Positions 1,905 through 23,249 of a DNA stretch of 42,339 nt are shown in pieces. The stretch is taken from NCBI GenBank assembly GCA_947499275.1, contig CANMNM010000001.1, positions 1 through 42,339 of the forward strand. Direction: 5' to 3'. The DNA is from Actinomycetota bacterium (GTDB lineage: Bacteria; Actinomycetota; Actinomycetes; S36-B12). The notes below the pieces were generated by a model. The model was not told where the DNA came from. It did not search any database and was given only the letters and a program-made list of their open reading frames with translations. Position 1 is the stretch's first letter; every line of letters begins with the position of its first letter. The translations under genes and the position numbers were made by a program.

Positions 1905-2399
1905 CTAAGCCAACTGAGAAGATTTTCCCTGTAAATTGATGACCATCGGTTGATGCAGGATTCCCGCATACGTTTCTACTGGACCTTCCGGGTGCCACCC
2001 CAAATACTCGAAGAATCGAACATTGGGCAGTTGAATGTGCGCGTGCATGACCAACCCACCATTAGCCGACGCTTGAGCGACCGCCTCTTGCACAAGTTCA
2101 AAACCAAGGCGAGAGCTTCGGTGCGCCTTAAGAACCGCAAGCCGATCCCCCTGCCATTGCTCGTATCCAGCGTCAAGGGGATACAAGCGGACCGCTCCCA
2201 CGGTCAGCCCATTTATGACACCAACGAGGTGGGTCGTGCTCAGTTCACTATCTCGACTGTCCTCGTCCGTGTCTGTAAAGATTCCCTGCTCAACAACGAA
2301 TACGTCGCGTCGTACGTCAAAATGCTCACGTCGGCGCTGGCGATTATCAACAGTCACAATTCTGGTGATGTCTCCCTGGCTTCCGCTGGGGTTGGTCAA
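1905..2399 (-). CDS. GNAT N-acetyltransferase, MSMEG_0567/Sll0786-like
   Basis: The core reads VFVVEQG...AVRLYP...LAVLKAHRSSRLG...F. The TTG start overlaps the stop of the upstream radical SAM gene (TTGA). Its position next to the radical SAM gene matches Nit1C clusters. Confidence 0.7.
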   Translation of the reverse strand: MTNPSGSQGDITRIVTVDNRQRRREHFDVRRDVFVVEQGIFTDTDEDSRDSELSTTHLVGVINGLTVGAVRLYPLDAGYEQWQGDRLAVLKAHRSSRLGFELVQEAVAQASANGGLVMHAHIQLPNVRFFEYLGWHPEGPVETYAGILHQPMVINLQGKSSQLA

Positions 2400-3655
2400 G
2401 AATTACCCTTCAGAAAGGATTGCCGATCAGTGATTTGCAAGGGAGTGATTGAATTTTTACGCGGTTCAAGTGAGGCAAGCCCCGAGCATGCTTGGCAGCG
2501 GGCACATCCCGCTTTTGCGGTGGTGGCGTCCATCCCACGCATGGACATGTAGGCCTGCACTCGGCGATAGATGGGTTCAACGTATTCGCGTGATGGAGAA
2601 GGCCAATTTTCCATCAGCGATCCGGCGACCGGCTTAAGCGGCACCATAAACGGATAGACGCCTAGGTCAATAGCTCGCTTCGCGCCAGCTATCGTGATTT
2701 CTGGGTCTTCACCCATTCCAAGAATGACGTAGGTCGATACCTGACCTTCACCAAAGACAGCAACCGCACGTTCCCACGCAGCAAAGTACGACTCGATTCC
2801 GCTAGCAGCCTTTGCCGGGGCAACCCGTGCCAAAACCTGGGGATCAAAAGTCTCAACATGTATACCCACGGAATCGATCCCCATGTCGCCAACTTCATTG
2901 ATCACATCGAGCTTTAATGGGGGCTCAAATTGAACTTCGACGGGTAGCCCACTGGCCTCTTTGACGGCCTGTCCACATTTTGCGACATAGCGAGCTCCAC
3001 GATCTACCCCTCGCGAACTTCCCGTTGTCAACGTTGCATCAACAGCGCCATCAAGTTCCTTGGCAGCCACGGCAACTTCAGCGAGCATCTCCGGCGTCTT
3101 TTTGACGATTGTCCGCCCAGATTCAAGTGAGACGCCGATTCCACAAAAAGTGCATTGGTCAGCGTTACCCCAGTAGGCACATGTTTGGACGACAGTGCTC
3201 GCAAGCGAATCCAAATGCAGGAGCGCGATTTTCTCGTACGAGATCCCGTCTGCGGTTGTGAGATCGTAGAATCGCGGCCTGCGCTCCGCGCGTGCCGACG
3301 CTACGCGAAGCATTCCACGGTAAATTCCATAGCCGTCGTCTTCAGCTTTGAGCAAATAAGGGGAATCCTGCGATGTCGAATTCCCGGTTGGAGCCGTCAC
3401 CGGATAGCCTTCGATCCAGAGCATTCCCGAGTCTGTCGGGCCGGCGCCACCTGTTCGACGCTCCATCTCTGCCTCGACCCTTAAACCACGGGCCTGCACG
3501 TCCATGATCAGGCTACTGATATCCCATGATCCGAGTTGGCCTGAAATAACTCGGCCATCGGCCTCGGCGGATTCATAAACCTGCGCGTAATCCATAGTGT
3601 CGAGCACTAACTCTCCCCTCGTCTGTGGTGCACGTGTGATTCCAGCCAATATCAT
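2396..3655 (-). CDS. radical SAM protein, MSMEG_0568-like
   Basis: A Cys triad CAYWGNADQCTFCG is followed by TIM-barrel-like strands (TTGSS, GIHVETFDP, ILGMGE). A C-terminal CARCQAC motif is present. The gene is coupled to the GNAT gene. Confidence 0.7.
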   Translation of the reverse strand: MILAGITRAPQTRGELVLDTMDYAQVYESAEADGRVISGQLGSWDISSLIMDVQARGLRVEAEMERRTGGAGPTDSGMLWIEGYPVTAPTGNSTSQDSPYLLKAEDDGYGIYRGMLRVASARAERRPRFYDLTTADGISYEKIALLHLDSLASTVVQTCAYWGNADQCTFCGIGVSLESGRTIVKKTPEMLAEVAVAAKELDGAVDATLTTGSSRGVDRGARYVAKCGQAVKEASGLPVEVQFEPPLKLDVINEVGDMGIDSVGIHVETFDPQVLARVAPAKAASGIESYFAAWERAVAVFGEGQVSTYVILGMGEDPEITIAGAKRAIDLGVYPFMVPLKPVAGSLMENWPSPSREYVEPIYRRVQAYMSMRGMDATTAKAGCARCQACSGLASLEPRKNSITPLQITDRQSFLKGNS

Positions 3656-3713
3656 AGGAGAAATTTCGTGTCCGAAAGTAGAAATCCAAACAATTGTTTA
3701 TCCGGTGCGACGA

Positions 3714-4367
3714 TTAATCCATATCTGTGCGGATCGCCTCAGCCTCGTCTAGCCATTCCTGGCGATTGCTCATTTCCAAGACCAGTGAAGCCTGAGATTC
3801 GCTTCTCGGGTAAACCTCAATCCGGAAAATAGGAGACCCTGTGGCCGGGTCCACATCGACCGAGCGCACTAATCGGGTCTCAGAGCTCAGATGAAGGTCA
3901 ACCCACTGATGCGACATGGCGTATCCGAGGGTTCCACCGTCCGGGGTTTGGATGGGCGCCCATTTCTCGCCGGCTGCCCTAGCGCGGTCAGTGATCACCT
4001 CTGCCTCGTGATCAACGCCCTGGGCAAGCAAGACGCGGTAACGCTGGGCCAGCGCCGCATCCACTATGAGTTGGTCATCAAGATTGGTCAAGACAATTCC
4101 CTGGCTACTTGCCAAACCATGGAGCCGGGCAATTGCCGGTGTGCGGATACTCACTAGGTCATCGACGCTTTGGGCTCGCTCAGAAAGGAAATCTCCGAGC
4201 AGTCCAACGAGACGGACCGAGCGCTGATAGATGTCTGGGTCAACTTGAGCGAGTGGGTAAAGATTTCGTTCCGCTTCAGTGAATCGGATGACCAGGGCCG
4301 CCAGTGCGTCGCCATTCTCCACGCCCGCGCGGGGCACTTCATTCATTTCCATCGCCTCATTTTCCAT
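3714..4367 (-). CDS. hypothetical protein (no recognisable family)
   Basis: A 217-aa ORF heads the rSAM-GNAT transcription unit. It is divergent from the carbamate kinase gene. I recognise no motifs. Confidence 0.5.
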   Translation of the reverse strand: MENEAMEMNEVPRAGVENGDALAALVIRFTEAERNLYPLAQVDPDIYQRSVRLVGLLGDFLSERAQSVDDLVSIRTPAIARLHGLASSQGIVLTNLDDQLIVDAALAQRYRVLLAQGVDHEAEVITDRARAAGEKWAPIQTPDGGTLGYAMSHQWVDLHLSSETRLVRSVDVDPATGSPIFRIEVYPRSESQASLVLEMSNRQEWLDEAEAIRTDMD

Positions 4368-4378
4368 GCGAACACCAC

Positions 4379-4411
4379 ATTTACTATAGTATGATATTTA
4401 CTATAGTATGA
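4379..4411. promoter_or_regulatory. tandem operator-like repeat: two copies of atttactatagtatga, each containing the perfect palindrome TACTATAGTA
   Basis: The copies lie at 4379-4394 and 4396-4411 with a 17-nt period. They sit in the 63-nt divergent intergenic region between 3714-4367 (-) and 4431-5447 (+). Confidence 0.55.
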
Positions 4412-4430: not shown

Positions 4431-5447
4431 ATGGAAAGGAAATCTACATTGATGCTTTCCACACCGGCACCTTTGGCCGTCGTTGCCTTGGGAGGAAATG
4501 CGATCACTCGTGAGGGGCAGGACGGGACATACCCCGAAATGCTAGCCAACTGCCAAGAAATGGCCGCGTCCGTGTGCGCACTGCGCGAAGCCGGTTGGCG
4601 AGTAGTGATCACACATGGAAATGGTCCACAGGTAGGAAACCTGGCCATCCAGCAGCATGCCGGATCCGCTGAAGTACCTGCACAGCCGTTATTTGCCCTG
4701 GGAGCAATGACCCAAGGGTTAATTGGGCACCTGATCCAAATGGCGCTGCTCAGTGTCCACAATCAACAACTCGGACCGGTCGTTGGAGTAGTTACTCATG
4801 TGATTGTTGACCGCCAGGACGAAGCATTCGATCGGCCTTCGAAACCAATAGGTCCTTTTTATTCACTTCAGGAGGCCCAAGCGCGTTCAGACCTCACCGG
4901 GCATCCGATTATTGAAGATTCTGGGCGCGGGTACCGCATCATCGTTCCATCACCACGCCCTCAAAGAGTTGTGGAAGGGGACGCAATATCCCGACTCTCA
5001 CAAGATGGGTATCTCGTCGTCGCGGGTGGTGGCGGTGGGATCCCTGTCGTGGAAATTGATGGGACACTCGAGGGCATCGAGGCTGTTGTCGACAAAGATC
5101 GAAGTGCCGCACTACTCGCTACTTATCTGGAAGCCGACGCTCTCCTTCTCGTCACCGGTGTCGAATGCGTCCTCGCTGACTTCGGGAAACCTACCCAAAG
5201 GGAAATTCATTTGGCCGATGCGGCACAAATGCGGGAGTACTCGAGGCAGGGGCAATTTCCTGCAGGCAGCATGGGGCCCAAGGTCGAGGCTGCTCTCGAC
5301 TTTGTTGACGCTACTGCTGGATTCGCCGTTATCACCGACGCCTCGTCGATGGCTTCAGCTTTAGGAGCATTAGGAACAGGCGTAACCCCTGGGACACGGA
5401 TCGTTCGAGAGATCCTCGAGTTACCAAAGCAAGGAGCCCTTCAGTGA
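4431..5447 (+). CDS. arcC: carbamate kinase
   Basis: The motifs VVALGGNAI and VITHGNGPQVG and a C-terminal AAK fold are present, and the length is typical. The stop overlaps the fdrA start (GTGA). Confidence 0.88.
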   Translation: MERKSTLMLSTPAPLAVVALGGNAITREGQDGTYPEMLANCQEMAASVCALREAGWRVVITHGNGPQVGNLAIQQHAGSAEVPAQPLFALGAMTQGLIGHLIQMALLSVHNQQLGPVVGVVTHVIVDRQDEAFDRPSKPIGPFYSLQEAQARSDLTGHPIIEDSGRGYRIIVPSPRPQRVVEGDAISRLSQDGYLVVAGGGGGIPVVEIDGTLEGIEAVVDKDRSAALLATYLEADALLLVTGVECVLADFGKPTQREIHLADAAQMREYSRQGQFPAGSMGPKVEAALDFVDATAGFAVITDASSMASALGALGTGVTPGTRIVREILELPKQGALQ

Positions 5448-6985
5448 CTCTCATATTTACTATCAACATGTACCCAGACACTTATCTTGATTCGGTACTT
5501 CAGATGTCGGGAACGCGAGAGATGGAGCAGTCTGAAGGAGTTCAGTGGGCTTCGGCGGCGATGAGCACGGTCGCGAATATCGAGACTCTTATTTCCCGAG
5601 GATTCCCCAGCGGCGAACTCGAGGGGGCTGGCCCCGGTGACCTTTTCATTGCCGTTGAATCCCTTGATTCCAGCAGTGGGGAACGAGCCATCGAAAACGC
5701 CCACCGGGTGATGTTTGCCGCCCGCAATGAAGCTAATCCAATGGCCGAGGCGATCCCTACTTCCCTAGATGAAGCTCTCACTCGTCAACCAAACTCAAAT
5801 ATCGCCATCATTTCGGTGCCAGGGGAATATGCAGCTCTCGAGGCACACAAGGCTCTGGCCAAGGGCCTCGATGTTCTTCTTTTCAGCGATGGGGTCACCC
5901 TCGAAGATGAGATCGCCCTCAAGGACCATGCCGCCGCTCGAAACCTTCTCGTAATGGGACCGGGAGCCGGGACTGCTGCCCTTGCCGGGATCGGACTGGG
6001 CTTTGCAAACGTTGTGCGCCCAGGACCTGTGGGCGTGGTCGCCGCAGCGGGTACCGGAGCCCAGGAAGTGATGGCTCTACTCCACCGCTGGGGTGTCGGT
6101 GTATCTCACGTGATCGGGCTTGGCGGTCGCGACCTCAGTGACAAAATCGACGGGCGCATGGCCCGACTTGCCATTCGTGCCTTGCGAAACGACTCGCAGA
6201 CGAAGGTTATTCTTTTCGTGTCTAAACCTCCTAGTGAACGCGTTGCCAAAGAGGTCATGGCTCTGGCTGACGGCTCACCTATGGTGGCAGCTTTCATGGG
6301 TATAGATATGACCACTGCGACCCCGCCGGGTGTAACACTCGCCAACACTCTCGAGTCTGGCGTACTGCGCACCTTGGAGGTTCTCGGTGAAAAGCTTCCT
6401 GACACCTCGGCCATTGCAGGTCCAGATATCCCTTCAGCCTTGGCCAAGATTTCGGCTGATCGCACCCTAATCCGGGGCCTCTACTCCGGTGGAACCCTGT
6501 GCTACGAGGCTCTGGTTATTCTTGCCGAAACCTTTTCGTCACCGGTGTATTCCAACACACCTATTAATAAGAAACTCGGAATGCCAGCCCCTGCTGACGC
6601 CAGCATCCTGCTCGATCTCGGTGAGGAGGAGTACACGCGGGGACGACCACATCCGATGATTGACCTGGAAGCACGCATATCTTTTCTAGAAGAAGCAGGT
6701 GCGGACCCTCAGGTTGCCGTAATTCTCATGGACCTAGTCCTGGGGCATGGAGCTCACCCTGATCCAGCGGCCGTGTTCGCTCCGATCTGTCAGAAGATCA
6801 TGGAAGCCGGCGGGCCCCAAATCGTCGTATACGTATTGGGAACCGATTTAGACCCCCAGCATTACACGTCGCAAGTGGCTGCCCTTGCCAATGCTGGATG
6901 CCTGGTTCCTGCAACAAACGCCCGCGCCGCCATCCTCGCAGCGCACTTAGCAGACCGTAATTTGTCTCATGAAACACTGGCGTAG
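5444..6985 (+). CDS. fdrA: FdrA family protein (succinyl-CoA-synthetase-like fold)
   Basis: The protein is collinear with E. coli FdrA. Shared motifs include YPDTYLDSV, ISVPGEYAALEA, LLFSDGVTLEDEI, LLVMGPGAGT, GLGGRDLS, FVSKPP and GRPHPMID. Confidence 0.85.
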   Translation: MTLIFTINMYPDTYLDSVLQMSGTREMEQSEGVQWASAAMSTVANIETLISRGFPSGELEGAGPGDLFIAVESLDSSSGERAIENAHRVMFAARNEANPMAEAIPTSLDEALTRQPNSNIAIISVPGEYAALEAHKALAKGLDVLLFSDGVTLEDEIALKDHAAARNLLVMGPGAGTAALAGIGLGFANVVRPGPVGVVAAAGTGAQEVMALLHRWGVGVSHVIGLGGRDLSDKIDGRMARLAIRALRNDSQTKVILFVSKPPSERVAKEVMALADGSPMVAAFMGIDMTTATPPGVTLANTLESGVLRTLEVLGEKLPDTSAIAGPDIPSALAKISADRTLIRGLYSGGTLCYEALVILAETFSSPVYSNTPINKKLGMPAPADASILLDLGEEEYTRGRPHPMIDLEARISFLEEAGADPQVAVILMDLVLGHGAHPDPAAVFAPICQKIMEAGGPQIVVYVLGTDLDPQHYTSQVAALANAGCLVPATNARAAILAAHLADRNLSHETLA

Positions 6986-8157
6986 TGACTTTAGACGGAC
7001 GGTTAGCACTTCTTACTTATTCCACGAAACCGCGTGGTGGTGTTGTCCACTCCCTTGAATTGGCAGAGGCCTTGAACCGCCAAGGGGTAGATGTTCATCT
7101 GTTTGCCTTGGGTTCACCCGGAACTTCTTTTTTTCGACCGACCTCCGTGCCGTTCACCCTTTTTCCGGCAGTGGATCAAGCGCAGAGCCTGGATGAAAAA
7201 GTTTTCGCATCGGTTGCTTCGATGGCCGAAGGTCTAGCCGGACTCCGTGACTCGTTTGATCTCATCCATGCACAGGACTGCATTTCGGGCCGGGCTGCCG
7301 TGGCGGTGTCCAGATCCGGACCAATCATCCCCGTTATTCGCACTGTCCACCATGTCGATGACTTCACCACTCAGGCGCTTATCGATTGTCAGCGACAAGC
7401 GATCGTAGAACCGGATCGGATCCTCGTGGTCAGTCGTACTTGGCAGAGCACCCTTCAGGAGGATTACGGGGTCCACGCTGACATTGTCCCTAATGGCGTG
7501 CGACCCGAACGGTTCCCGCAGATCTCAGATGCGGAAAAGATGGCCCTACGGGCATCAGTAGGAATCACAGACGGAAGCATGATTCTTGCTGTAGGCGGAG
7601 TCGAGCCACGCAAGGGCAGTCGCGAACTCTTTCAAGCAATGGGGATACTTAAAAGTCGCGGCCACCGGGTTCACTTGGTCATACTCGGGGGCCACTCCTT
7701 CCAAGACTACGAGGAGTACCGACAGGAAGCTCTGAGTCTGTTGCCTGAGCTAGGTTTGGAACTCGGTCGTGATGTGATCACCGTGGGCACGGTTGACGAG
7801 CAAGCCCTAGGCCAATGGTTCCGTGCTGCAGATGTCCTTGCTTATCCATCCACAAAAGAAGGGTTTGGCCTCGTTGCTCTCGAGGGCCTCGCCGCAGACC
7901 TTCCGGTAGTGGCAAGCAGCATCCCGGTTTTCAAAGAATTTCTTACCGATGGGGTAAGTGCGTTGCTCCCCGAAACGGGCAATCCAGAGGCAATTTCTGG
8001 TGCGATCGAATCCATTCTATTGAGTAGCGATCTGAGGTCACGACTTATTGCGGGTGGCCAATCTGTCCTCGCTGGTTACACGTGGGAAGCATCGGCAACC
8101 CGACACTGTGACATCTATCGTGAGGTACTGGAGAAATTTGGTCGAGCACCTAACTAG
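6985..8157 (+). CDS. GT4-family glycosyltransferase, MSMEG_0565-like
   Basis: The N-terminus reads LALLTYSTKPRGGVVHSLELAEAL. The C-terminal GT-B motif is YPSTKEGFGLVALEGLAADLPVVAS. The GTG start overlaps the fdrA stop by 1 nt. Confidence 0.75.
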   Translation: MTLDGRLALLTYSTKPRGGVVHSLELAEALNRQGVDVHLFALGSPGTSFFRPTSVPFTLFPAVDQAQSLDEKVFASVASMAEGLAGLRDSFDLIHAQDCISGRAAVAVSRSGPIIPVIRTVHHVDDFTTQALIDCQRQAIVEPDRILVVSRTWQSTLQEDYGVHADIVPNGVRPERFPQISDAEKMALRASVGITDGSMILAVGGVEPRKGSRELFQAMGILKSRGHRVHLVILGGHSFQDYEEYRQEALSLLPELGLELGRDVITVGTVDEQALGQWFRAADVLAYPSTKEGFGLVALEGLAADLPVVASSIPVFKEFLTDGVSALLPETGNPEAISGAIESILLSSDLRSRLIAGGQSVLAGYTWEASATRHCDIYREVLEKFGRAPN

Positions 8158-8543
8158 TGATCGTGATCGTGGTCATGATCATGGTCGTGCCCGTGGTCAT
8201 GATCATGGTCGTGCCCGGCTGGACGCAATGCAAGATCTCGCGCTCGACCTGACAGATCACTTGCAGTAACTAATTCACTGCTAATACTTACCTGTTCCAA
8301 GGCACTCAACCAGCACTGATAATAAGAGTATTCCTCGCCCGGTGTTTCCTGCTCCTCCCAAGTGGCGATCGCTGAAATTAATTCAGCGCGAAATTCTTCC
8401 CACGTGAAAGCACCTGACTCATGCAACGACATGACGAGTCCGAATGCTCGGCTCTGCCACGGCTCCTCAAAAACCAGTTCGCCATTGGACCTGGGTGGCG
8501 CTGCCGGACCATCAATGTCAAAATCAATCGTTGCAGTCATCAC
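8154..8543 (-). CDS. nitrile hydratase accessory (activator) protein with C-terminal His/Asp repeat tail
   Basis: The beta-subunit-like N-terminus reads [35 protein letters not shown]. The gene lies immediately downstream of NHase alpha with an ATGA overlap. The tail is [20 protein letters not shown]. Confidence 0.75.
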
Positions 8544-9136
8544 GCACTCACCTGAGCTACGCCCACCATGGCGTCACGGGTCACGAGAGCAGCGAGTTCA
8601 GCTTCGGATAATTCTTCAGTACCCGGGGGTCGCTGAGGTAACACGAAGAATCGCACCTCACTGCTGCTGTCCCACACGGTTATCTCCGTATCTGTGGGCA
8701 ATTCCAGTCCCATCTCAGCCAACACTGTTCTCGGTTCGCGCACGACGCGTGACCGATAGGCAGGATCTTTGTACCAAGCGGGTGGAAGGCCTAGTAGCGG
8801 CCATGGGTAGCACGAACATAAAGTGCACACAACAACGTTGTGTACTTCGGCGCTGTTCTCCACTACAACGAGATGCTCACCTTGAGGTCCCTTGAACCCT
8901 AATTCTGCAATCGCACCCGTGCCGTCGTCGAGGAGTCGTTGCTTGAATTCGGGATCCGTCCAAGCTTTGGCAACAACTTGGGCTCCATTGAGTGGTCCCA
9001 CATCTTTCTCGTAAGTCTTGATAAAAGTGTCCATCACCTGTGGGTCAACGAGCCCACGCTCTACCAGAAGCTGCTCAAGAGCCTCGGTCCGAAGATTCAT
9101 CGGGATCCGATCACTCGATGGTTGTGCTTTACTCAT
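8540..9136 (-). CDS. nthA: nitrile hydratase alpha subunit, cobalt type
   Basis: The metal-centre motif [21 protein letters not shown] is present; Thr and Tyr at the variable positions indicate the Co type. The length is 198 aa. Confidence 0.93.
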
Positions 9137-9816
9137 GATGCAGCCTCCAAATAGTCCTCGTACAGGTCGGTATTAAGTGTGAAATTTTCTGTATTTTCTT
9201 GATATAGCTCACGCGAATCGAAACTCACCGTGTACACCCATTGGGCGTTTTCAGCGATGAAATGTGCGTGTGTATCGGGAAGAATCTGCGCCGGTTCAAC
9301 GATGGCAACTGTCCCGACATGTCCTTGGGTGTACTTCTGCAGGCGCGTGTGACCTGGAGCATTCATCGTTTTTGCCCGAACTCGCTGGCCCACGCTGAAC
9401 TTGCGCGGTGCATCAATTTGTCGAATCGATCCCCCCGCAGTCGGGGCGTAATCGGGTTTATTGGATTCAGGTACAGGTGGCTCGTCCACGTGACCCCCCG
9501 CGATATTCGCAGCTCTCGCCTCAACTGCTCCCGGTGCAATGATTGCACTGTCCAGCAATAAATTCTCAGCGCCGTACAGCCACCGACCGTAGTAACCATC
9601 ATCGAAGTAGTGCTCTCGATCTAGTCGATTCATGGCATGCCTGAACGCGTCAAGATTTGACCCAGAAACTCTCATCGACAATAGGGCTAAGGCAAAGGCC
9701 CGCCCCTCCCATTTCTCAGGAAAAACCACCTCGTCGGGGTCAATAATCGGGGCTCGTCCCCAACCAGAATCGCCACCCATGTCGGCCACACCACTAGCCG
9801 GTTGAATTTCTATCAT
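9133..9816 (-). CDS. nthB: nitrile hydratase beta subunit
   Basis: The motifs [24 protein letters not shown] and a C-terminal SH3-like part are present. The ATG at 9816 is preceded by GAGGAG; the tracked ORF extends to 9918. The stop overlaps the alpha start (ATGA). Confidence 0.85.
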
Positions 9817-9876
9817 CAAACTCTCCTCATCTTTGGAAACCTGACGGCCCCTTAACCTCACGACTAAAGACCTGAT

Positions 9877-9915
9877 GCCTTGTGGGTGTTGAACAACGTC
9901 CAACACCCACAAGGC
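9877..9915 (-). other. 15-bp perfect stem-loop between the Sll0783-like gene and NHase beta
   Basis: The sequence is gccttgtgggtgttg-aacaacgtc-caacacccacaaggc. No U-tract follows on the transcribed (minus) strand. Confidence 0.5.
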
Positions 9916-9922
9916 CAAGCAA

Positions 9923-10411
9923 CTACAGGGTCCAGGTGTTCATCTGGAATGCGCCCTCACTCCAAGCTGTCAAGGCGGTGTCGAGCACGTCAAGCGGGTT
10001 GAACGGGATAACCCCTGGAATGAGATCATCTTCGCCGAATCCGTAAAGCGCACCCATCGCAAAGCGACATGCGTAAATCTTCGCGCCTTCTTTCATGAGC
10101 GTCTTGAGCTGCTCATTGATTGCGAGGTGACCTGGAAATGCGGCCATCCCAACACCGGGGTAACCGCGAGTGCCTGAGGCTGCGAGAACTCCGGGTCCAT
10201 AAAGGACGATACTGACTTCGAATCCTTTACGCACCAAACGCGTTGACGTCAACAAGTTGACTAACAGAACCGAACCTTCGTAGGGAACCGTGTGGATAAA
10301 AATGTATGCTTTCTGTCCAGCTTTGGCCTTAATGTCAGGGAATAGTTTTTCCTCTGCATTAAATAATGACTCTCCGTCTGCCGGTAGAGATCTGATTACG
10401 GTTTTTGGCAT
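9923..10411 (-). CDS. MSMEG_0572/Sll0783-like nitrogen-starvation response protein
   Basis: The motifs are LFNAEEKLFPDIKAK, FIHTVPYEGSVLLVNLLT, IYACRFAMGALYG and NPLDVLD...NTWTL. The ATG at 10411 is preceded by GGAGGAG; the tracked ORF extends to 10540. Confidence 0.7.
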   Translation of the reverse strand: MPKTVIRSLPADGESLFNAEEKLFPDIKAKAGQKAYIFIHTVPYEGSVLLVNLLTSTRLVRKGFEVSIVLYGPGVLAASGTRGYPGVGMAAFPGHLAINEQLKTLMKEGAKIYACRFAMGALYGFGEDDLIPGVIPFNPLDVLDTALTAWSEGAFQMNTWTL

Positions 10412-10446
10412 TACTCCTCCATCGTGTTGTGTTGTGTTGTGTTCAA

Positions 10447-10701
10447 CTAGATCGCCGGTCCCTCCGGCGACGTCTGTTTGGCCCAGTTCTTCCTGTGGCT
10501 TCCGGGCATCGCCACCATGATCCGTCTGCGTAGTCCCCACGGCATGATCCGGTAAATCGGAATGAATACACCGGTCCAGAAGAATTCACCACTCGTGCTT
10601 GGCGCCTCAATTCCGTGATTGCGTGCAACACGCGCTTGTGCATCACGCAATAAATAAAATTGGGCATTCTCGCGCAGCCACTTCGATGGTGATTTCATCA
10701 A
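10447..10701 (-). CDS. small protein in the MSMEG_0570 position of the cluster
   Basis: This 84-aa ORF has a start overlapping the flavoprotein stop (ATGA). Its position between the flavoprotein and Sll0783-like genes mirrors MSMEG_0569-0570-0572. The family assignment is positional only. Confidence 0.5.
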   Translation of the reverse strand: MMKSPSKWLRENAQFYLLRDAQARVARNHGIEAPSTSGEFFWTGVFIPIYRIMPWGLRRRIMVAMPGSHRKNWAKQTSPEGPAI

Positions 10702-12041
10702 CGCCCCAACTGCGACGCAACACCCTTTTGGGCAGCCACCGCGATCGGCTCATTGAGTGCACCTATTGGTGGTGAGTACACATTTTCCATGGTGGCCAGG
10801 TCGTACAGCGTCAATCCAGCCTTGACCGCTACTCCGAGGAAGTCAGCTCTTTCTTTGATTCCTTCTCCGCCCACCATTTGGGCTCCGATAAGGCGTAGTG
10901 TTCCTTTTTCGGCGATGAGCTTCACCCGAACTTTTTTAACTCCCGGGTAGTAACGAGCTCGCGAGATACCGTCAGCCACCGCCACCACGTGCGGCACGCC
11001 CAACGCATTCGCTGTCACTTCGCCAAGTGCAACTCCGCCGATCATCCACTTCCCGGCCACCATGCCCCAGGGGACATACACAGGGTTGTACGTTCGGGTC
11101 CCACCAGCAGCATTAGCGCCGGCCACTTTCCCCTGGGCGTACGCGTGGCTCCCGGTAAGACCTTGGAGCGGTAAACCGCCGAGACCATGGGGAATCTCGC
11201 ACACATCACCGCTGGCCCATACGCCGGCCGCTGATGTCTGCATGCTTCCGTCAACGATGAGCCCGCCCGTGCTGCCAGTTTTTAATCCAGCCGCGATCGC
11301 CAACTCATTATTTGGGACCTTGTGCGTGGCCACAACAACAAGATCGCATTCGATGTCTCCCCCTGATGTGCGAACTCCGCGTACGGCGCCTGACTCATCG
11401 CCGAGAAACTCTTCCAAGGTTGTGTTCCAGTGCATGGTGACACCAAGCTCCGTCCACGACTCATGGACGAGTTCGACAATGTCTGGATCTGCCACTTCCC
11501 CGAGCGCCCATGGGTTCGGATCGATCACATGAGTTTCTATTCCCCGGTGAGCTAGAGCCGTGATCATTTCAACGCCGAGAGGACTGGCTTCCACAACGAC
11601 CGCCTTTTTGACGGTGTCAAGACGTTTATCCCACTCCATTGCTTCACGGATATTCTTCACGTAATAAAGCCCATCAAGGTCCCCACCGGGCACTCCCGGG
11701 TTCGCATAGGAGAAACCCGTCGCGATGACGAGAGAGTCGTAGTGCATCGGCTGGCCAGATTCGATCTGAATAGTCTTCGAACTTGTGTCTATTGAAGTGA
11801 TCTTCGTCTGGTACCGGATATCAATGCCCGCATCGACGTAAGCCTGCTTATCAGCCAGAAATAATGCTTCAAAACTTGGAATTTCTTTTCCATGTACGAA
11901 GGGAATTCCGCAGGGACTGTAGGCGACGTCTTCATTCTCGGTGAAGACGGTGACTGATGCCGAGGGGTCCACTGCTTTGGCACCACCGGCGGCTCCGAGT
12001 CCCGCGCCTCCGCCTCCGATGACGATAATATGCTGTGCCAC
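10698..12041 (-). CDS. FAD-dependent pyridine nucleotide-disulfide oxidoreductase (MSMEG_0569 position; NADH oxidase/CoA-disulfide-reductase-like)
   Basis: It has an N-terminal IVIGGGGAGLGAA dinucleotide fold and a single redox Cys in YSPCGIPFV. A second Rossmann motif (VVVEASPLGVE) and GVWASGD are also present. Confidence 0.8.
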   Translation of the reverse strand: MAQHIIVIGGGGAGLGAAGGAKAVDPSASVTVFTENEDVAYSPCGIPFVHGKEIPSFEALFLADKQAYVDAGIDIRYQTKITSIDTSSKTIQIESGQPMHYDSLVIATGFSYANPGVPGGDLDGLYYVKNIREAMEWDKRLDTVKKAVVVEASPLGVEMITALAHRGIETHVIDPNPWALGEVADPDIVELVHESWTELGVTMHWNTTLEEFLGDESGAVRGVRTSGGDIECDLVVVATHKVPNNELAIAAGLKTGSTGGLIVDGSMQTSAAGVWASGDVCEIPHGLGGLPLQGLTGSHAYAQGKVAGANAAGGTRTYNPVYVPWGMVAGKWMIGGVALGEVTANALGVPHVVAVADGISRARYYPGVKKVRVKLIAEKGTLRLIGAQMVGGEGIKERADFLGVAVKAGLTLYDLATMENVYSPPIGALNEPIAVAAQKGVASQLGR

Positions 12042-12193: not shown

Positions 12194-12820
12194 GTGGCGC
12201 GCACTACCACTAAGAATGAAACCGCAATAAAGCCAAAATCAGATCCGCCCCTCGAGCTCGAAGAGATCGTCAGCCTGATCGGTCCAAAAATAGCGGGATT
12301 GCGCAAGGCTCAGGGCCTATCCCTTCAGCAACTCGCTTTGACGAGCGACGTCTCGGCCGCGGCCATTCATAAGATTGAACGCAGCGGGATGGTCCCCACG
12401 GTGACAACTCTTCTGAAGTTGGCGGGTGCACTTGGGGTTCCGGTTAGTTACTTCGTTGCCGAAGATGACCCGCACCCTGAATCCGTACACCTCACCAAAT
12501 CTGAATCCCGGAGACCCGTTTACACGCCACATGATGGACTCGCCCTAGGAGGCATCAGTGGGTCCTACCGCCAATTTCAAGCGGCGGCAGCAGTCGCAAG
12601 CATGTCGGCGGGAGCAAATAGTGGTGTCAAACTACTCAAGCATCCGGGGGAAGAGTTGGTCTACGTGCTGAGCGGGCGGGTTCGCTTTACCGTCGGTAAT
12701 GATGAGTACGCCCTCAAAGCAGGGGATTCCTTACACTTCAGCGGAGATGTGCCGCATCACTGGGGAAATTTAGGCAAGGTGACTGCCCAGTTGATCTGGT
12801 TCGCTTTGAGGAATGGCTAG
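12194..12820 (+). CDS. XRE-family HTH regulator with C-terminal cupin sensor domain
   Basis: The HTH reads LSLQQLALTSDVSAAAIHKIERSG. The cupin motifs are HPGEELVYVLSG and GDSLHFSGDVPHHW. Confidence 0.85.
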   Translation: MARTTTKNETAIKPKSDPPLELEEIVSLIGPKIAGLRKAQGLSLQQLALTSDVSAAAIHKIERSGMVPTVTTLLKLAGALGVPVSYFVAEDDPHPESVHLTKSESRRPVYTPHDGLALGGISGSYRQFQAAAAVASMSAGANSGVKLLKHPGEELVYVLSGRVRFTVGNDEYALKAGDSLHFSGDVPHHWGNLGKVTAQLIWFALRNG

Positions 12821-13237
12821 TCGTGGCGGGACAATGTCCAGATTGACAACACTTATCTCCGGTGATGTTTTCAGCGTATTAGTCACGTAGCAAACACGCT
12901 CCGCTGATGCAATGAGTTTGGCGGCGGTCTCCTCGGGGACCGGGATTCTTACACTGATCTGAATTCGGCTGAACCTGGGTCCTTCATACGTTCCCGTCAC
13001 ATCCACTTCAATACTTGATAGTTCAAGATCTCTTTTGCGTGCCGCATACGCAAGTGACATCACGAAGCACGATGCCACAGCGCTAAGTAGCAGGTCTGTC
13101 GGCTGAGGGCCCGTGTCCGTGCCCCCTACCCGAACAGGTTCATCGACCCGACTCTGAAAATCGCCGGCCATCACGTCAACTTGGAAGCCACCAAGCCATC
13201 GGGCGGTCACCAATCGATCTGCAGCCATGTAATCCAC
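12770..13237 (-). CDS. OsmC/Ohr family protein
   Basis: The protein has PTDLLLSAVASCF and a second Cys in ERVCYVTNTL, the typical two-Cys OsmC arrangement. Its 3-prime end overlaps the regulator gene by 51 nt. Confidence 0.75.
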   Translation of the reverse strand: MDYMAADRLVTARWLGGFQVDVMAGDFQSRVDEPVRVGGTDTGPQPTDLLLSAVASCFVMSLAYAARKRDLELSSIEVDVTGTYEGPRFSRIQISVRIPVPEETAAKLIASAERVCYVTNTLKTSPEISVVNLDIVPPRLAIPQSEPDQLGSHLA

Positions 13238-13319: not shown

Positions 13320-14405
13320 GTGGACCGCACTCGAATCCGTGAACTTTTATTTCTGTTCCTTGCCGTAGCCGCGCTCAATATCGCTGGGTGGGGGACGTAC
13401 GCCTATTACTTACGTGCTGAACCGGCTAATACCGCTTACGTGGGAGTAGGGCTTGTGGCGTATTTCCTAGGGGTAAGACATGCCTTTGATGCGGACCACA
13501 TCGCAGCGATTGATGACAGTGCAAGATTAATGGTCAACCAGGGACGTCGCCCGATTGGTTTAGGGTTCTACTTTGCAATTGGTCACTCGACAGTGGTCTT
13601 GCTGATGTGTGTGGGAGTGAGTGTTCTTGCCGGAACCTTCGTCTCGTCCGGCCAAATCTATCTGCAAGACGTTGGTGGCCGGATCGCCGCTCTGGTAGCA
13701 GCCATTTTTCTCTTGGTCGTCGGATTTTTAAACTTTAAGGTTCTACAACGGCTTCGAAACACCAAACGAGATCTGAAAAGCGGTGCGATCAGCCCGGCTG
13801 AGTTGGAGTCACGTCTCTCTGGTGCATCGCCTTTTGCTCGACTCCTTGGTGGTAAAACAATGAACCGGCTGCAATCAAGTTGGCAGATGTTTCCCATCGG
13901 TTTCATCTTTGGACTCGGGCTTGAGACTGCTTCAGAAGTCACGCTACTCAGCCTCTCCGCCGCGGGTGCCGCGGCAGGTGACCTACCAATTGGCGCCATT
14001 CTCGCTCTGCCCCTTTTGTTTGCGGCAGGTATGACGCTGTGTGATTCCATCGATTCGGTCACCATGGTCCATGCGTACAGTTCGGCAAGCACTACGGCCC
14101 ACGACCGACTGTTTTTTAACATTCTCATGACGGGAATCACAGCGACGATCGCGACATTTGTTGGGGCGATCTACCTCTCTCAGGTTCTCGTTGATGAAGT
14201 TGGAATTCGCGTCCTAGAACCAATTGCCCAAATAAATGAGCATTTTGAGATACTGGGTTACGTCATTGTTTCCGTCTATTTTGTCGTTTGGGCGTGTGCG
14301 TTTTTGGTGTGGCGCAGATCAAAGAAACGCGCCAAGTCCAATGTTGTCGGCGAGTACCGCAGGGCCATAAGTGCACCGTATGCCAAGTCCAGTCCTGATG
14401 AGTGA
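13320..14405 (+). CDS. NiCoT (HoxN/HupN/NixA/NhlF) family nickel/cobalt transporter
   Basis: The TM2 signature RHAFDADHIAAIDD and the second signature FGLGLETASEV are present. The protein is about 8 TM segments and 361 aa. Confidence 0.85.
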   Translation: MDRTRIRELLFLFLAVAALNIAGWGTYAYYLRAEPANTAYVGVGLVAYFLGVRHAFDADHIAAIDDSARLMVNQGRRPIGLGFYFAIGHSTVVLLMCVGVSVLAGTFVSSGQIYLQDVGGRIAALVAAIFLLVVGFLNFKVLQRLRNTKRDLKSGAISPAELESRLSGASPFARLLGGKTMNRLQSSWQMFPIGFIFGLGLETASEVTLLSLSAAGAAAGDLPIGAILALPLLFAAGMTLCDSIDSVTMVHAYSSASTTAHDRLFFNILMTGITATIATFVGAIYLSQVLVDEVGIRVLEPIAQINEHFEILGYVIVSVYFVVWACAFLVWRRSKKRAKSNVVGEYRRAISAPYAKSSPDE

Positions 14406-15109
14406 CCAAGCTCCGCGAGCCGGGCGCGGGAAACGCGCGCTGCTCCTTCCTGTCCGCGAGAGCATTCCTGCAAAAGAGTGTGAAGTGTTTCAATCGACTG
14501 CCCCACCGCGGCCCATCTCAGAAATGCGCGCGAAATCTCATGCGTAGCTGCGGCACGCGCGATCTCCTGGCGCATCTCCCGGTTATGACCACCAAGCATC
14601 GAGTCAACTACAAGAATCCCCGCCGCAACATCGTCACCTGCTGGCGTTAATCCAATCCCGCGGCCAATGACCGATGCGCAGGCACCGGCGAGATCACCCA
14701 CTTGCAAGAAACTCGCCAGTTCTTCCTCCAATAGGTGGCCCGGTGATGAACCCAAAGTGAGATCGGGGACGTGACCCAATACGGTTGCGAGAAGTCCAGT
14801 TGCTCGATTGATATCCGGGTTCGCCGCGGGTACCCACAGATGCTCAGAGACGGGCACGATTTGATCGACCACGCACAATTCTCCATCACGCACTTCTACC
14901 GGATCGCCTAAGGAACCCAGTGGCAAAGTGTGCATTCGGGCATGGAGAGGGCCCGAAGGGACGCTAGCGATAGTGAGTGCGAATACGTGTTCGCCCACCT
15001 GGATATACATCGCCTTACGAAAGCTGGCAATGACCCGGCCCGCAGAGTTTCTTTCGAGGCCTTCGCGAACTCCCTCCCCCGCGTCAAGGGGAAGGGTCAC
15101 TCCGTTCAT
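14276..15109 (-). CDS. DUF2877 (YlbF-like) protein
   Basis: The gene follows the DUF1116 gene with a 4-nt overlap, as in E. coli ylbE-ylbF. It contains GRGIGLTPAGDD. The family call rests mostly on position and size. Confidence 0.5.
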   Translation of the reverse strand: MNGVTLPLDAGEGVREGLERNSAGRVIASFRKAMYIQVGEHVFALTIASVPSGPLHARMHTLPLGSLGDPVEVRDGELCVVDQIVPVSEHLWVPAANPDINRATGLLATVLGHVPDLTLGSSPGHLLEEELASFLQVGDLAGACASVIGRGIGLTPAGDDVAAGILVVDSMLGGHNREMRQEIARAAATHEISRAFLRWAAVGQSIETLHTLLQECSRGQEGAARVSRARLAELGHSSGLDLAYGALMALRYSPTTLDLARFFDLRHTKNAHAQTTK

Positions 15110-16521
15110 TTTCCCTGGTTAACAAGCTCGACTAGGGCTTGCCCAAACCCTTCAAGCGGCGCCGTCGCGACGCCAGCTCCTATCTGCCCTACCCCTGACG
15201 AAAGATGAAGAATTCCTGTGGTGACCTTGGGGCTAATTCCAGTCTCAACCACTTTTCGCACATCCACGCCAAGTGGGGTGCCTCGAAAGCCCATCGTCGG
15301 CAATTTGAATCGGCTGCTTTCTGACACACATATCCTTCTCATATCTTCGGTGGCCCGGGCAGCATCAGACATCGACCCACCGAGAAAAGCCGCCACCGCT
15401 GGAGACCCTGCTGCAGCAGCCCCCCCAAGCCCAATCAACTCGAGTACCGCACTGTCACCCATGTCAAGGGCGGCATCTTCCGAGCTGAAACCCGCGTAAT
15501 ACAACGCATCTGCCACCGGAGGAGCCGGACAAATATGCCAACGAGGTGAATCCCCCACCTTCACGCCAAAAGTGGTTCCGTTGCGCGCCATGGTCGTGAC
15601 AATCGTTGAACCAGACACTTGCTCCGCTGCGAGCATCAGTGACTTTGCCGCCGCCATAGCAATTGTCAGAAAGAAGAGGTGATTCTTGGACAAATAATGA
15701 GCGAACGCCACCGAGCCTTCATCATTTCCCAATCGGGCAATTGATGTAAGCACATCGCGGATCAAAAGATTTGTCGTCGCCTGCGTACGCATATGAACGT
15801 CGTCGCCCATTTGCACGCCCTGTGATGCTAAGGACAGGATGTCAATCGGACCACTTTCCTTGAGGATCTGTGCGATTCTCGGCTGGGCAACCTCCCGTAA
15901 GAAGATCAGCCTTTCTATCGCCGCTGGCGACTCACGCCCAAACCACGGAACATCCCCCGGACCCTGGTTGACGGGCGCGAATCCAACTGTCCCAGACTCC
16001 GCATTCTCAGCTATCCACACCGGGGTCGTAGGTCCGATAGCTGAAGCCATCGGCACGACGGTCCCATGATCATTGGCGGCAGCAAGTGCGACGGAGCCAT
16101 CCGCGAGCAACCGGTCAGCTGTTTCAACATCTTGCGCCCAACCTTCCGCAACTGTTGCAGCGCGCATCGATCGCCGTACCGGATCACATACGAATTCATA
16201 AGCAATGGGTGGACCGGCATGCAGCAGGGTGCGATCGGGAAGTGTAGACAATGCATCCCGTGCGGCCGCCACTCCAATGAGCATCGGAACTCCCTTGTCA
16301 ATCCTGCGAATTGCTTCGACATTCGCCTTGTCGTATTCCAGAGAATTCATCGCGTAAGAATCAGTGAGCGCCCTGAGAAGAACCGGTGAATTTCCCGAAG
16401 GGACGCGCCAGTCAACGTGAATCACCTCAGCATCTTGTTCGCGGATCGCTTCCGCGAACAATGGCAATCCAACGTTGATTACTGCCGCGTTCTCTGGCAA
16501 CTTATGCAGGGTTGTTTCCAT
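15106..16521 (-). CDS. DUF1116 (YlbE-like) protein
   Basis: The N-terminus ENAAVINVGLPLFAEAIREQDAEVIHVDWRVP is typical of YlbE-type proteins. The length is 471 aa. It partners FdrA and the carbamate kinase in this window. Confidence 0.7.
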   Translation of the reverse strand: METTLHKLPENAAVINVGLPLFAEAIREQDAEVIHVDWRVPSGNSPVLLRALTDSYAMNSLEYDKANVEAIRRIDKGVPMLIGVAAARDALSTLPDRTLLHAGPPIAYEFVCDPVRRSMRAATVAEGWAQDVETADRLLADGSVALAAANDHGTVVPMASAIGPTTPVWIAENAESGTVGFAPVNQGPGDVPWFGRESPAAIERLIFLREVAQPRIAQILKESGPIDILSLASQGVQMGDDVHMRTQATTNLLIRDVLTSIARLGNDEGSVAFAHYLSKNHLFFLTIAMAAAKSLMLAAEQVSGSTIVTTMARNGTTFGVKVGDSPRWHICPAPPVADALYYAGFSSEDAALDMGDSAVLELIGLGGAAAAGSPAVAAFLGGSMSDAARATEDMRRICVSESSRFKLPTMGFRGTPLGVDVRKVVETGISPKVTTGILHLSSGVGQIGAGVATAPLEGFGQALVELVNQGK

Positions 16522-17993: not shown

Positions 17994-18993
17994 TTTTGGC
18001 TACCACGCTTTCACGGTTGCCCATCACGGTAAGTGATTCAATCGCCGCCGGCAATCCTCCCGTTAGCCACCACACAACAGTGTCATTGGAGGCACCGGTT
18101 ATGTGAGAAATTATCTCGTAAGCCGGGACACCGTATGTCGGGTCGAGAAGAACTCCAACGCGCCAGAATGCTTCATCTCGTGCAAACGCACCATTTTCAT
18201 CTAGCTCTTGATCATGGAATCCCACTGCGTCAATGATGGTGAAATTGGTCATCGATGGTGCCCCTCGTCCCAAAAGTTCTGAGGTTTGCGTTGACAAGTC
18301 AGTAATGACTCCACGCATCTCATCCACATTTCGGCTCACTGACACCCCAACAACTTTCCACATCGCTCCCAAGAAATCACTGCCCGCAAGGAACCCTGCA
18401 ATCGATGCACCAGACCCAACGGGAAGCACCACGGTTACTTGATTGGGATCCGTCCCCCTCACGTTGCATTGCTCATACAGTTCAATTGCAGCTCTGGCAA
18501 AGCCCAAGCCACCTACTGCAGTAGCACCACCGCGGGGAACGGGGTACGGCCTTCGGCCTTCGGCCGCCAACTCCGCTGCCCGACGTTCGACCTGTTCATT
18601 TATTAACGAGCGGTCTTGCCCGGTGAAGTGAATCACCGCGCCAGTTGCCTGCGCCATTAATAGGAGTACGGGCCAAGCCTCCATGGGATCTCCCGCCACC
18701 TCAATTTCACAATCAAGACCGACTGCCGCTGCCGCATGTGCACAGGCTCCAATAAAATTAGACCCTGCCGCTCCACCGGTAACGACAACATTGGAGTCGC
18801 ATTTGAGCGCGTCCGCCATGAGATATTCCAATGGCCTTACTTTGTTGCCGGCTAGCCCGAAACCCGTGAGATCGTCACGCTTGAGGAGAACGGGGGCAGC
18901 CGCGTCGATCTGCCACGGAGCGGCGAGGTGCAGGGGTGTCGGAAATTGACCCAGGTGAGTTCGAGGAAATCGATCAGTCGGATTCACTGGCAC
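17986..18993 (-). CDS. PLP-dependent enzyme, ACC deaminase/D-cysteine desulfhydrase family
   Basis: The motifs FPTPL, KRDDLTGFGLAGNKVRPLEYL (PLP lysine) and VTGGAAGSN are present. Confidence 0.75.
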   Translation of the reverse strand: MPVNPTDRFPRTHLGQFPTPLHLAAPWQIDAAAPVLLKRDDLTGFGLAGNKVRPLEYLMADALKCDSNVVVTGGAAGSNFIGACAHAAAAVGLDCEIEVAGDPMEAWPVLLLMAQATGAVIHFTGQDRSLINEQVERRAAELAAEGRRPYPVPRGGATAVGGLGFARAAIELYEQCNVRGTDPNQVTVVLPVGSGASIAGFLAGSDFLGAMWKVVGVSVSRNVDEMRGVITDLSTQTSELLGRGAPSMTNFTIIDAVGFHDQELDENGAFARDEAFWRVGVLLDPTYGVPAYEIISHITGASNDTVVWWLTGGLPAAIESLTVMGNRESVVAKNV

Positions 18994-22038: not shown

Positions 22039-22121
22039 GTGTCCTATACTACGCGTACTTTCACTTTACGACATATCTACCCGTGAATATTCTGCGCATT
22101 GTTACTACATTGGAGGACTCC

Positions 22122-23129: not shown

Positions 23130-23249
23130 TTTTTTTATTTCTTGGCGCAAATATAACGAACTGGCTGACTTCGGGGTCCGAAATGTGTACTTTTGTGTAT
23201 ACACCAAGTCGTATAATGAATGTGCGGCTTACAATCATTGGAGATGAGA

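Follow-up and report, generated by a model that had tools for sequence, protein, structure and literature searches.

AllFGH-type and carbamate kinase genes in two operons

The 42,339-nucleotide stretch of DNA analyzed in this study (hereafter, the window) is the whole contig CANMNM010000001.1 of an actinomycetotal metagenome-assembled genome (MAG; assembly GCA_947499275.1, 1.46 Mb, 71% complete), placed in the Nanopelagicales by its nearest relatives. Scans with hidden Markov models (HMMs) delineate in it an island of about 21 kb (positions about 1900-23200), in which genes of the Nit1C/gpr type, genes of the coenzyme-M type, and others are combined. The island contains a carbamate kinase gene and homologs of all three AllFGH subunits, that is, the four families of the E. 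coli genes allFGHK (formerly fdrA-ylbE-ylbF-ybcF). They are divided between a plus-strand unit of arcC, allF, and a glycosyltransferase gene (GT) and the tail of a seven-gene minus-strand operon, 8 kb apart. A preliminary description of the stretch had proposed the four families and this division; the HMM matches and the gene junctions agree with both. The features concerned are the following.

4379-4411, no strand: two tandem copies of ATTTACTATAGTATGA, palindrome TACTATAGTA, in the 63-bp divergent promoter region
4431-5447, plus strand: carbamate kinase of the ArcC/AllK/YahI type (PF00696 AA_kinase, 6.2e-26; NF009007, 277 bits, cut-off 266, passed)
5444-6985, plus strand: AllF/FdrA/YahF-type subunit, similar to the alpha subunit of succinyl-CoA synthetase, with CoA_binding (PF02629) and Ligase_CoA (PF00549) domains
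6985-8157, plus strand: glycosyltransferase of the MSMEG_0565 family, GT4 (TIGR04047, 376 bits, cut-off 260)
14276-15109, minus strand: AllH (formerly DUF2877), last gene of the seven-gene operon (PF11392, 1e-20, 74.8 bits, cut-off 25)
15106-16521, minus strand: AllG (formerly DUF1116), with a YahG-type boundary (PF06545, 8.4e-64, 215.5 bits, cut-off 27)

The kinase scores 324 bits on the arcC model TIGR00746, below the cut-off of 358, and the ATG at 4452 may be its true start. AllF is similar to E. coli FdrA of known structure (PDB 3DMY, 4.3e-75) and scores 404 bits on the FdrA model NF004760, just short of the cut-off of 433. Every residue that the alignment shows to be invariant among FdrA, YahF, and the AllF proteins of the cluster type is retained in it, and so are the motifs GGRDLS and G(R/K)PHPMID. 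An argument from a phospho-enzyme was considered and dropped, since the position of the phospho-histidine of the succinyl-CoA synthetase alpha subunit is conserved neither in AllF nor in FdrA and YahF. The nearest solved structure for AllG is the uncharacterised protein 3CLQ (4.6e-76).

AllH carries two invariant motifs, GxGxGLTPxxDD and G-x-S/T-SG, the former being common to YlbF and YahE in the alignment. Its AlphaFold model has a pLDDT (predicted local distance difference test score) of 86.6. The fold gives no clue to function, as the best Foldseek hit against PDB has an E-value of 0.06 and a template modeling score of 0.14, and a sequence search of PDB produced no match. The convergent 3' ends of allH (minus strand) and of the adjacent NicO-type transporter gene (plus strand) overlap by 130 bp (14276-14405). 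Residues 271-277 of the AllH model have pLDDT below 50, so the stop position of one of these genes may not be the functional end of its protein.

Overlapping junctions (GTGA between arcC and allF, TAGTG between allF and the GT gene) indicate translational coupling of the plus-strand unit. In the minus-strand operon, allG follows an xcbC-like gene after a gap of 17 nt with an AAGGAAG ribosome-binding site, and overlaps allH by ATGA. The tandem copies of ATTTACTATAGTATGA lie between the arcC-allF-GT unit and a divergent unit encoding a 217-aa protein, a radical SAM protein, and a GNAT protein; two matches were found where 0.06 were expected, and they are probably an operator. No further copy was found elsewhere in the window, even with up to three mismatches allowed. 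A shared operator tying together the two units that hold the four genes was rejected, the TACTATAGTA repeat being confined to 4379-4411 with no occurrence upstream of the minus-strand operon, which starts with ComA.

Despite the distance of 8 kb, AllF and AllG are likely to act as one enzyme, because natural fusion proteins join their domains. AllG has 2,577 relatives at E <= 0.001 among 1.84 billion representative proteins, and the best matches include chains of about 1000 aa (800-1100) that carry CoA_binding, Ligase_CoA, and AllG domains. Such fusions are represented by P0012, P0015, P0016, P0013, and P0035, one of them with an additional C-terminal ChrR-type cupin domain.

The four proteins are 30-42% identical to both sets of E. 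coli K-12 and about equidistant from each. The kinase is 42% identical to YahI, its best identity, and 37% to YbcF/AllK; AllF, 38% to YahF and 39% to FdrA, with the highest bit score for YahF; AllG, 34% to YahG and 38% to YlbE; and AllH, 30% to both YahE and YlbF. The identity to E. coli AllFGH is thus 30-39%. The boundary between AllF and AllG is of the YahF/YahG rather than the FdrA/YlbE type: the lengths are 513 and 471 aa in the window, 515 and 472 aa for YahF and YahG, and 555 and 419 aa for FdrA and YlbE, and residues 8-52 of the window AllG align with residues 507-551, the C-terminal tail, of FdrA. The yahE-yahF-yahG and yahI genes, which match the window set in subunit lengths and domain boundary, form one contiguous operon with genes for an ankyrin protein and an amidohydrolase, unlike the set in the window.

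E. coli AllFGH is the oxamic transcarbamylase, for which the reaction oxalurate + Pi <-> oxamate + carbamoyl phosphate was shown (PMC11326118), and the carbamate kinase AllK works catabolically (PMC9843812), in line with the background given in the preliminary description. In the window, too, the set is paired with a carbamate kinase. However, E. coli allFGHK adjoins allB and allECD, whereas the two opposite-strand units of the window have no allB, allC, allD, or allE neighbours, and HMM scans of the window, that is, of the entire contig, revealed no allantoin-pathway genes. The AllD family (Ldh_2, PF02615; ureidoglycolate dehydrogenase, the source of oxalurate) was found in none of 22 genomes of the genus, this 71% complete MAG included, and about seven of the 22 carry a cluster-type AllG. 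Since the set is equally close to the uncharacterised yahEFG-yahI genes and falls into a clade of its own (see below), oxalurate is not the expected substrate. The four genes are no part of purine breakdown.

Conserved linkage and exclusion of the CN-hydrolase module

A search with the window AllG against one genome per species yielded 65 loci, from the Nanopelagicales, Micromonosporaceae (Asanoa, Planosporangium), Streptosporangiaceae (Nonomuraea, Streptosporangium), Acidimicrobiia, Nocardioidaceae, Intrasporangiaceae, Microbacteriaceae, Euzebyales, and Dormibacterota. Gene presence was scored by tblastn with every island protein, aided by gene calling based on third-position GC content (GC3); the longest-ORF (open reading frame) calling used before, which gave spurious antisense "families" in loci of 65-77% GC, was replaced. 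Many apparent gene absences are ends of contigs or flanks.

Other genes of the same cluster are present at all 65 AllG loci, and three arrangements recur. The arcC-allF-GT unit is divergent from the unit for the unknown protein, the radical SAM protein, and the GNAT protein. The allG gene, alone or with allH, directly follows Xcb-type genes or the AIR-synthase-like gene. The gene for a CoA-disulfide-reductase-like (CoADR-like) flavoprotein is followed by an 84-aa ORF, an MSMEG_0572-like gene, and then nitrile hydratase (28-29 loci) or Amidohydro_2 (PF04909; five loci). Because these arrangements recur across loci, the separation of allF from allG is the conserved state of the clade and not a local accident. 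The module is fixed and co-inherited in a supercluster of about 21 kb with Nit1C/gpr-type genes, nitrile hydratase or Amidohydro_2, and CoADR-like and OsmC-like genes, usually together with the coenzyme-M-type ComA/XcbA-E set.

In the maximum-likelihood tree, the cluster-type AllG proteins form one clade (support 100/100, stem length 1.6), which excludes E. coli YlbE/AllG and YahG as well as paralogues from related Nanopelagicales genomes; the deep branches of the tree are long and the deeper branching order is unsure. One of these paralogues (L069:9100-10359, genome G003) is not accompanied by FdrA; its neighbours are a glutamine-synthetase-like gene and genes for a Peptidase_C26 protein and an NCS1 permease. 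Another (L073:9484-13282, genome G031) belongs to an allH-allF-allG trio beside a xanthine/uracil permease gene.

Several variants of the cluster were observed. In three Acidimicrobiia loci (L025, L028, L053) it is compact, with AIR-synthase-like, allF, radical SAM, GNAT, allG, and allH genes and, in addition, a class I fructose-bisphosphate aldolase, ComA, and the CoADR-like gene; XcbA-E are not adjacent, and the XcbA family is encoded elsewhere in these genomes. The Amidohydro_2 protein, of about 290 aa, occupies the position of nitrile hydratase in many relatives of the cluster (L013:14478-15482, L046:14107-14997, L047:13048-13905, L041:1579-2445, and genomes G134, G148, G255, G361, G171, G428, and G373) and is 64-75% identical across classes. 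It is a third hydrolytic option besides nitrilase and nitrile hydratase. Finally, five loci (L002, L005, L008, L010, L011) come from MAG records titled "Bifidobacterium breve" and contain a Nanopelagicales-type cluster, one of them with an AllG 100% identical to that of the window; the label looks wrong.

The classical Nit1C/gpr cluster is known from Pseudomonas (nitBCDEFGH), Synechocystis (sll0783-0787), and Mycobacterium smegmatis (MSMEG_0565-0572) (PMC6039565, PMC7815647). In M. smegmatis, nitrogen starvation raises its expression about 100-fold (PMC6039565), and in Pseudomonas it is genetically linked to cyanide assimilation, the native substrate of its nitrilase being still unknown (PMC7815647). 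The window shares with it the MSMEG_0572 family, the MSMEG_0568 radical SAM protein, the MSMEG_0567 GNAT protein, the sll0787 AIR-synthase-like protein, and the MSMEG_0565 glycosyltransferase. For the CN-hydrolase (nitrilase) and the MSMEG_0569 flavoprotein of the classical cluster, tblastn gave no match to the window or to any of the 65 AllG loci. Present instead are nitrile hydratase, AllF, AllG, AllH, carbamate kinase, the CoADR-like flavoprotein, a helix-turn-helix (HTH)-cupin regulator, an OsmC-like protein, and the Xcb-type set.

As a sample drawn by AllG alone could not reveal clusters of the other kind, an even sample of 401 Actinomycetota genomes was searched for the MSMEG_0572 family. 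It was found in 16 of them, and 15 neighbourhoods could be typed, that of the sixteenth (G250) stopping at a contig edge. Four neighbourhoods are classical (G179, G351, G368, G340), with one or two CN_hydrolase genes and the MSMEG_0569 flavoprotein (TIGR04046, 641 bits), and without AllF, AllG, arcC, the cluster-type CoADR-like gene, or Xcb genes. The other eleven are of the AllFG type (the window genome, G134, G148, G162, G171, G216, G255, G333, G361, G373, G428): ten contain AllG and one has allF and arcC on one short contig, while neither CN_hydrolase nor the MSMEG_0569 flavoprotein was found in any. Nitrile hydratase is present in the window genome and Amidohydro_2 in seven; neither was seen in the fetched stretch in three. 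No neighbourhood combines both modules (0 of 15 typed), a pattern that rests on 15 classifiable clusters of one phylum and may be inflated by shared ancestry. The AllFG/kinase module holds the place that the CN-hydrolases and the MSMEG_0569 flavoprotein have in the classical cluster.

The CN_hydrolases of the classical neighbourhoods are not nitrilases of the Nit6803 type (35 bits, cut-off 502). Among curated models, that of N-carbamoylputrescine amidase fits them best (107 bits, below cut-off), which suggests that the nitrilase label given to them may be wrong. In G179, the two CN_hydrolases (L078:9838-10710 and 14438-15289) reach only 31-35 bits with the Nit6803 nitrilase model. The N-carbamoylputrescine amidase model ranks first for the former; for the latter it ranks second, behind an archaeal nitrilase model. 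All these scores are below cut-offs.

Other genes of the island and its flanks

The remaining genes of the island are as follows.

1905-2399, minus strand: GNAT protein of the MSMEG_0567 type (TIGR04045, 88 bits, cut-off 68)
2396-3655, minus strand: radical SAM protein of the MSMEG_0568 family (TIGR04043, 382 bits, cut-off 304)
3714-4367, minus strand: 217-aa protein, conserved in 28 of the 65 loci
8154-8543, minus strand: nitrile hydratase accessory protein
8540-9136, minus strand: nitrile hydratase alpha subunit
9133-9918, minus strand: nitrile hydratase beta subunit
9923-about 10411, minus strand: DsrE-like protein of the MSMEG_0572/Sll0783 family (TIGR04044, 199 bits, cut-off 110)
10447-10701, minus strand: conserved 84-aa ORF, detected by tblastn in 37 of the 65 loci
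10698-12041, minus strand: CoADR-like flavoprotein
12194-12820, plus strand: HTH-cupin regulator
12770-13237, minus strand: OsmC-like protein
13320-14405, plus strand: NicO/HoxN-type Ni/Co transporter
16539-17993, minus strand: XcbC-like protein (412 bits, cut-off 575)
17986-18993, minus strand: XcbE-like pyridoxal phosphate (PLP) enzyme (212 bits, cut-off 450)
18984-20357, minus strand: XcbD-like protein (549 bits, cut-off 600)
20330-21256, minus strand: XcbA family/DUF7714 (339 bits, cut-off 150, passed)
21253-22038, minus strand: ComA (227 bits, cut-off 280)
21852-23129, plus strand: AIR-synthase-like protein of the sll0787 type (TIGR04049, 257 bits, below the cut-off of 321)

The GNAT, radical SAM, and 217-aa protein genes form the minus-strand unit (1905-4367) divergent from arcC. 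The nitrile hydratase genes (8154-9918) pass TIGR01323 (306 bits, cut-off 250) and TIGR03889 (76 bits, cut-off 46) and are related to thiocyanate hydrolase (TIGR03887, 193 bits, below cut-off). The 84-aa ORF, for which neither Pfam nor NCBIfam gave a match, overlaps the first 47 codons of the ORF at 9923-10540, and for this reason the start of the MSMEG_0572-like gene is probably near 10411.

The five genes preceding allG in its operon (16539-22038, minus strand) resemble a coenzyme-M biosynthesis set. Among the products of the xcbABCDE set, the XcbA family alone exceeds its NCBIfam cut-off, and XcbC, XcbD, XcbE, and ComA remain under the equivalog cut-offs. In ten genomes, the AllG locus has no Xcb genes beside it, and each of the ten encodes the XcbA family somewhere. 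Within the phylum sample, six of the nine genomes with an MSMEG_0572-linked AllG (the window genome aside) have this family, compared to none of the six others; the three AllG-linked clusters without any XcbA are those of G171, G373, and G428.

The AIR-synthase-like gene is divergent from the ComA operon and likely starts at the ATG at 22123. A HypE-like reading of its product was discarded, as NCBIfam lists methanogenesis marker 2, PurL, ThiL, and SelD, and not HypE. An AmiS/UreI channel at 23220-23780 was likewise rejected, Pfam giving only weak similarity to DUF981 (E-value 0.0085).

The island is flanked by fasciclin genes and by actinobacterial housekeeping genes such as cysS, ispDF, carD, and phoU. 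The two fasciclin-domain genes that bracket it (970-1632 and 24038-24634) have the same orientation. This bracketing, together with the occurrence of the cluster in only about seven of the 22 genomes of the genus, fits an accessory island.

Predicted carbamoyl release and alternative readings

Homology and gene context, on which all functional statements below rest, predict that the four genes encode a phosphate-dependent carbamoyl-transfer enzyme of the AllFGH/YahEFG type, in which AllH would be a third subunit of less constant occurrence, and a carbamate kinase. We tentatively suggest, with somewhat less than even confidence, that this enzyme and the kinase are a phosphorolytic, ATP-yielding substitute for hydrolytic carbamoyl release. 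A hydratase or amidohydrolase step would make a compound X-CO-NH2, where X is an electron-poor nitrogen or sulfur; in the window genome, it could arise through hydration of a heteroatom-bound cyano group by nitrile hydratase, and in other genomes via Amidohydro_2. AllFG(H) would then cleave X-CO-NH2 with phosphate to X-H and carbamoyl phosphate, from which carbamate kinase and ADP would form ATP, NH3, and CO2.

A hydrolase and a transcarbamoylase are known to replace each other in this manner: carbamoylputrescine is processed either by N-carbamoylputrescine amidase, a CN-hydrolase, or by putrescine transcarbamoylase together with carbamate kinase. A second pair of alternatives is formed by the oxalurate amidohydrolase HpxY and by AllFGH with AllK (PMC12625717, PMC11326118). 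The preliminary description had proposed that carbamoyl phosphate is harvested from an N-carbamoyl or amide intermediate; the exclusion of the CN-hydrolases adds comparative support to this proposal, in which the catabolic direction, a substrate with a carbamoyl group, and the source of that substrate are predictions. The further statements of the description, that the set lacks allantoin-pathway genes nearby and would serve a context other than purine catabolism, agree with the fixed linkage, the separate AllG clade, and the missing AllD family, and the linkage to Nit1C-type and nitrile hydratase genes that it had suggested looking for recurs in dozens of other genomes. We favour the catabolic direction because AllK is catabolic, the classical cluster is induced by nitrogen starvation, and the MAG encodes its own CarB, the large subunit of carbamoyl-phosphate synthetase, so that ArcC is not needed as the source of carbamoyl phosphate for the cell. 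Release of carbamoyl groups would also fit the nitrogen-starvation induction (PMC6039565) and the link to cyanide assimilation (PMC7815647) of the classical cluster.

Several observations weigh against this proposal. Nitrile hydratase acting on a C-nitrile gives a C-carboxamide, which is no carbamoyl donor, so the scheme needs a heteroatom-bound cyano group or a later step. The origin of the carbamoyl group would not be uniform, since many clusters carry Amidohydro_2 in place of nitrile hydratase. AllH is not beside AllG in Asanoa, Nonomuraea, Streptosporangium, and some others; it is encoded elsewhere in 10 of the 11 genomes without an AllG-adjacent AllH, and the Asanoa genome lacks it altogether. 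In Nonomuraea, arcC lies outside the cluster, every genome tested having at least one carbamate kinase. The mutual exclusion could reflect two lineages of one ancestral cluster, not functional substitution. Finally, the reaction of oxamic transcarbamylase can run both ways, and its assay followed the synthetic direction (PMC11326118), and the coupling of the GT gene to arcC and allF, as well as the radical SAM, GNAT, and AIR-synthase-like genes, would fit biosynthesis equally.

The last two points lead to the main rival, which we consider unlikely though worth serious attention: the pathway may be anabolic, with carbamate kinase supplying carbamoyl phosphate and AllFG(H) carbamoylating an amide or amine, for example an amide made by nitrile hydratase. 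A small glycosylated metabolite formed by the radical SAM, GNAT, AIR-synthase-like, and GT enzymes would thereby receive an N-acylurea or ureido group. Indeed, E. coli AllFGH accepts the primary amide oxamate for carbamoylation in vitro (PMC11326118), primary amides are what nitrile hydratase makes, and the composition of the cluster, including the translationally coupled arcC-allF-GT unit, resembles that of a biosynthetic cluster. However, in the place of this module the classical cluster has hydrolases, which cannot carbamoylate; carbamate kinases are usually catabolic (PMC9843812); the MAG has CarB, which normally supplies carbamoyl phosphate; and the clusters with Amidohydro_2 are without an amide made by nitrile hydratase.

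The coenzyme-M-type genes can be accommodated in a more elaborate scheme, a thiol-carrier cycle that assimilates cyano groups with ATP yield, which we regard as improbable. A cyano group would be captured on the coenzyme-M-type thiol of the cluster, for example by cyanolysis of a disulfide with the help of the MSMEG_0572 DsrE-like protein. Nitrile hydratase would hydrate the resulting R-S-C#N to an S-carbamoyl thiol, R-S-CO-NH2. Phosphorolysis of this thiocarbamate by AllF/AllG (and AllH) would give the free thiol and carbamoyl phosphate, mirroring the thioester phosphorolysis by succinyl-CoA synthetase and reversing the HypF/HypE route to the hydrogenase cyanide ligand. Carbamate kinase would then produce ATP, NH3, and CO2, and the CoADR-like flavoprotein would recycle the disulfide. 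The genome-wide co-occurrence of XcbA, the constant CoADR-like, MSMEG_0572-like, and OsmC-like neighbours, and the kinship of nitrile hydratase to thiocyanate hydrolase are consistent with such a cycle; the three AllG-linked clusters lacking XcbA and the replacement of nitrile hydratase by Amidohydro_2 in many clusters argue against it.

Slightly more doubtful still is the possibility that AllF/AllG is no carbamoyltransferase at all, and instead forms an acyl phosphate or acts as a thiol ligase on a coenzyme-M-type thioester, like the ADP-forming acyl-CoA synthetases, with the protein of the amino-acid-kinase fold using another acyl phosphate. This would agree with the succinyl-CoA synthetase alpha fold of AllF and with the co-occurrence of the XcbA family with the cluster even when unlinked. 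Nevertheless, the kinase passes the carbamate kinase model, AllF has kept all the invariant motifs of its family, the sole characterised family member is a carbamoyltransferase (PMC11326118), and XcbA is missing from the three genomes named above.

The idea that an ordinary oxalurate pathway of the allFGHK type merely lies near unrelated genes has family-level homology in its favour, is hardly credible, and is already largely refuted by the absence of allantoin genes from the contig and of AllD from the genus, by the interleaving and translational coupling with Nit1C-type and Xcb-type genes in the 65 loci, and by the separation of the clade from E. coli AllG.

In the literature searched, we found no paper that reports this linkage, that joins nitrile hydratase, carbamate kinase, and phosphosulfolactate synthase, or that describes DUF1116/DUF2877 in such a context. 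The nearest precedent is a metagenomic report of allFGHK adjoining biuret and triuret genes in ammonia-oxidising archaea and comammox Nitrospira, for which scavenging of oxalurate or ureides was proposed (PMC12625717). As in the window, the four-gene set stands there outside allantoin operons, beside enzymes that handle carbamoyl-rich compounds, but its partners are biuH, atzF, and trtA, and Nit1C and coenzyme-M-type genes are lacking. The present analysis contributes the mutual exclusion with the CN-hydrolase/MSMEG_0569 flavoprotein pair, as measured in an even sample, the similarity of the classical hydrolases to carbamoyl amidases, the finding that AllH and arcC are not constant members of the cluster, and the AllF-AllG fusion proteins.

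Enzymes of the AllFGH type have been recognized only since 2024, with oxalurate as the one known substrate. Cyanide assimilation, nitrogen starvation, and peroxide resistance have been connected with the Nit1C/gpr cluster, whose chemistry is not known. In much of the Actinomycetota, a distinct AllF/AllG clade with carbamate kinase replaces the CN-hydrolases of this cluster, which offers a chemical clue: the cluster may generate a carbamoyl-level intermediate that would be released either by hydrolysis or by phosphorolysis with a gain of ATP. The window places this pathway in the abundant, genome-streamlined freshwater Nanopelagicales, where an accessory island of 21 kb has to repay its cost, plausibly with nitrogen scavenged from cyano or ureido compounds.

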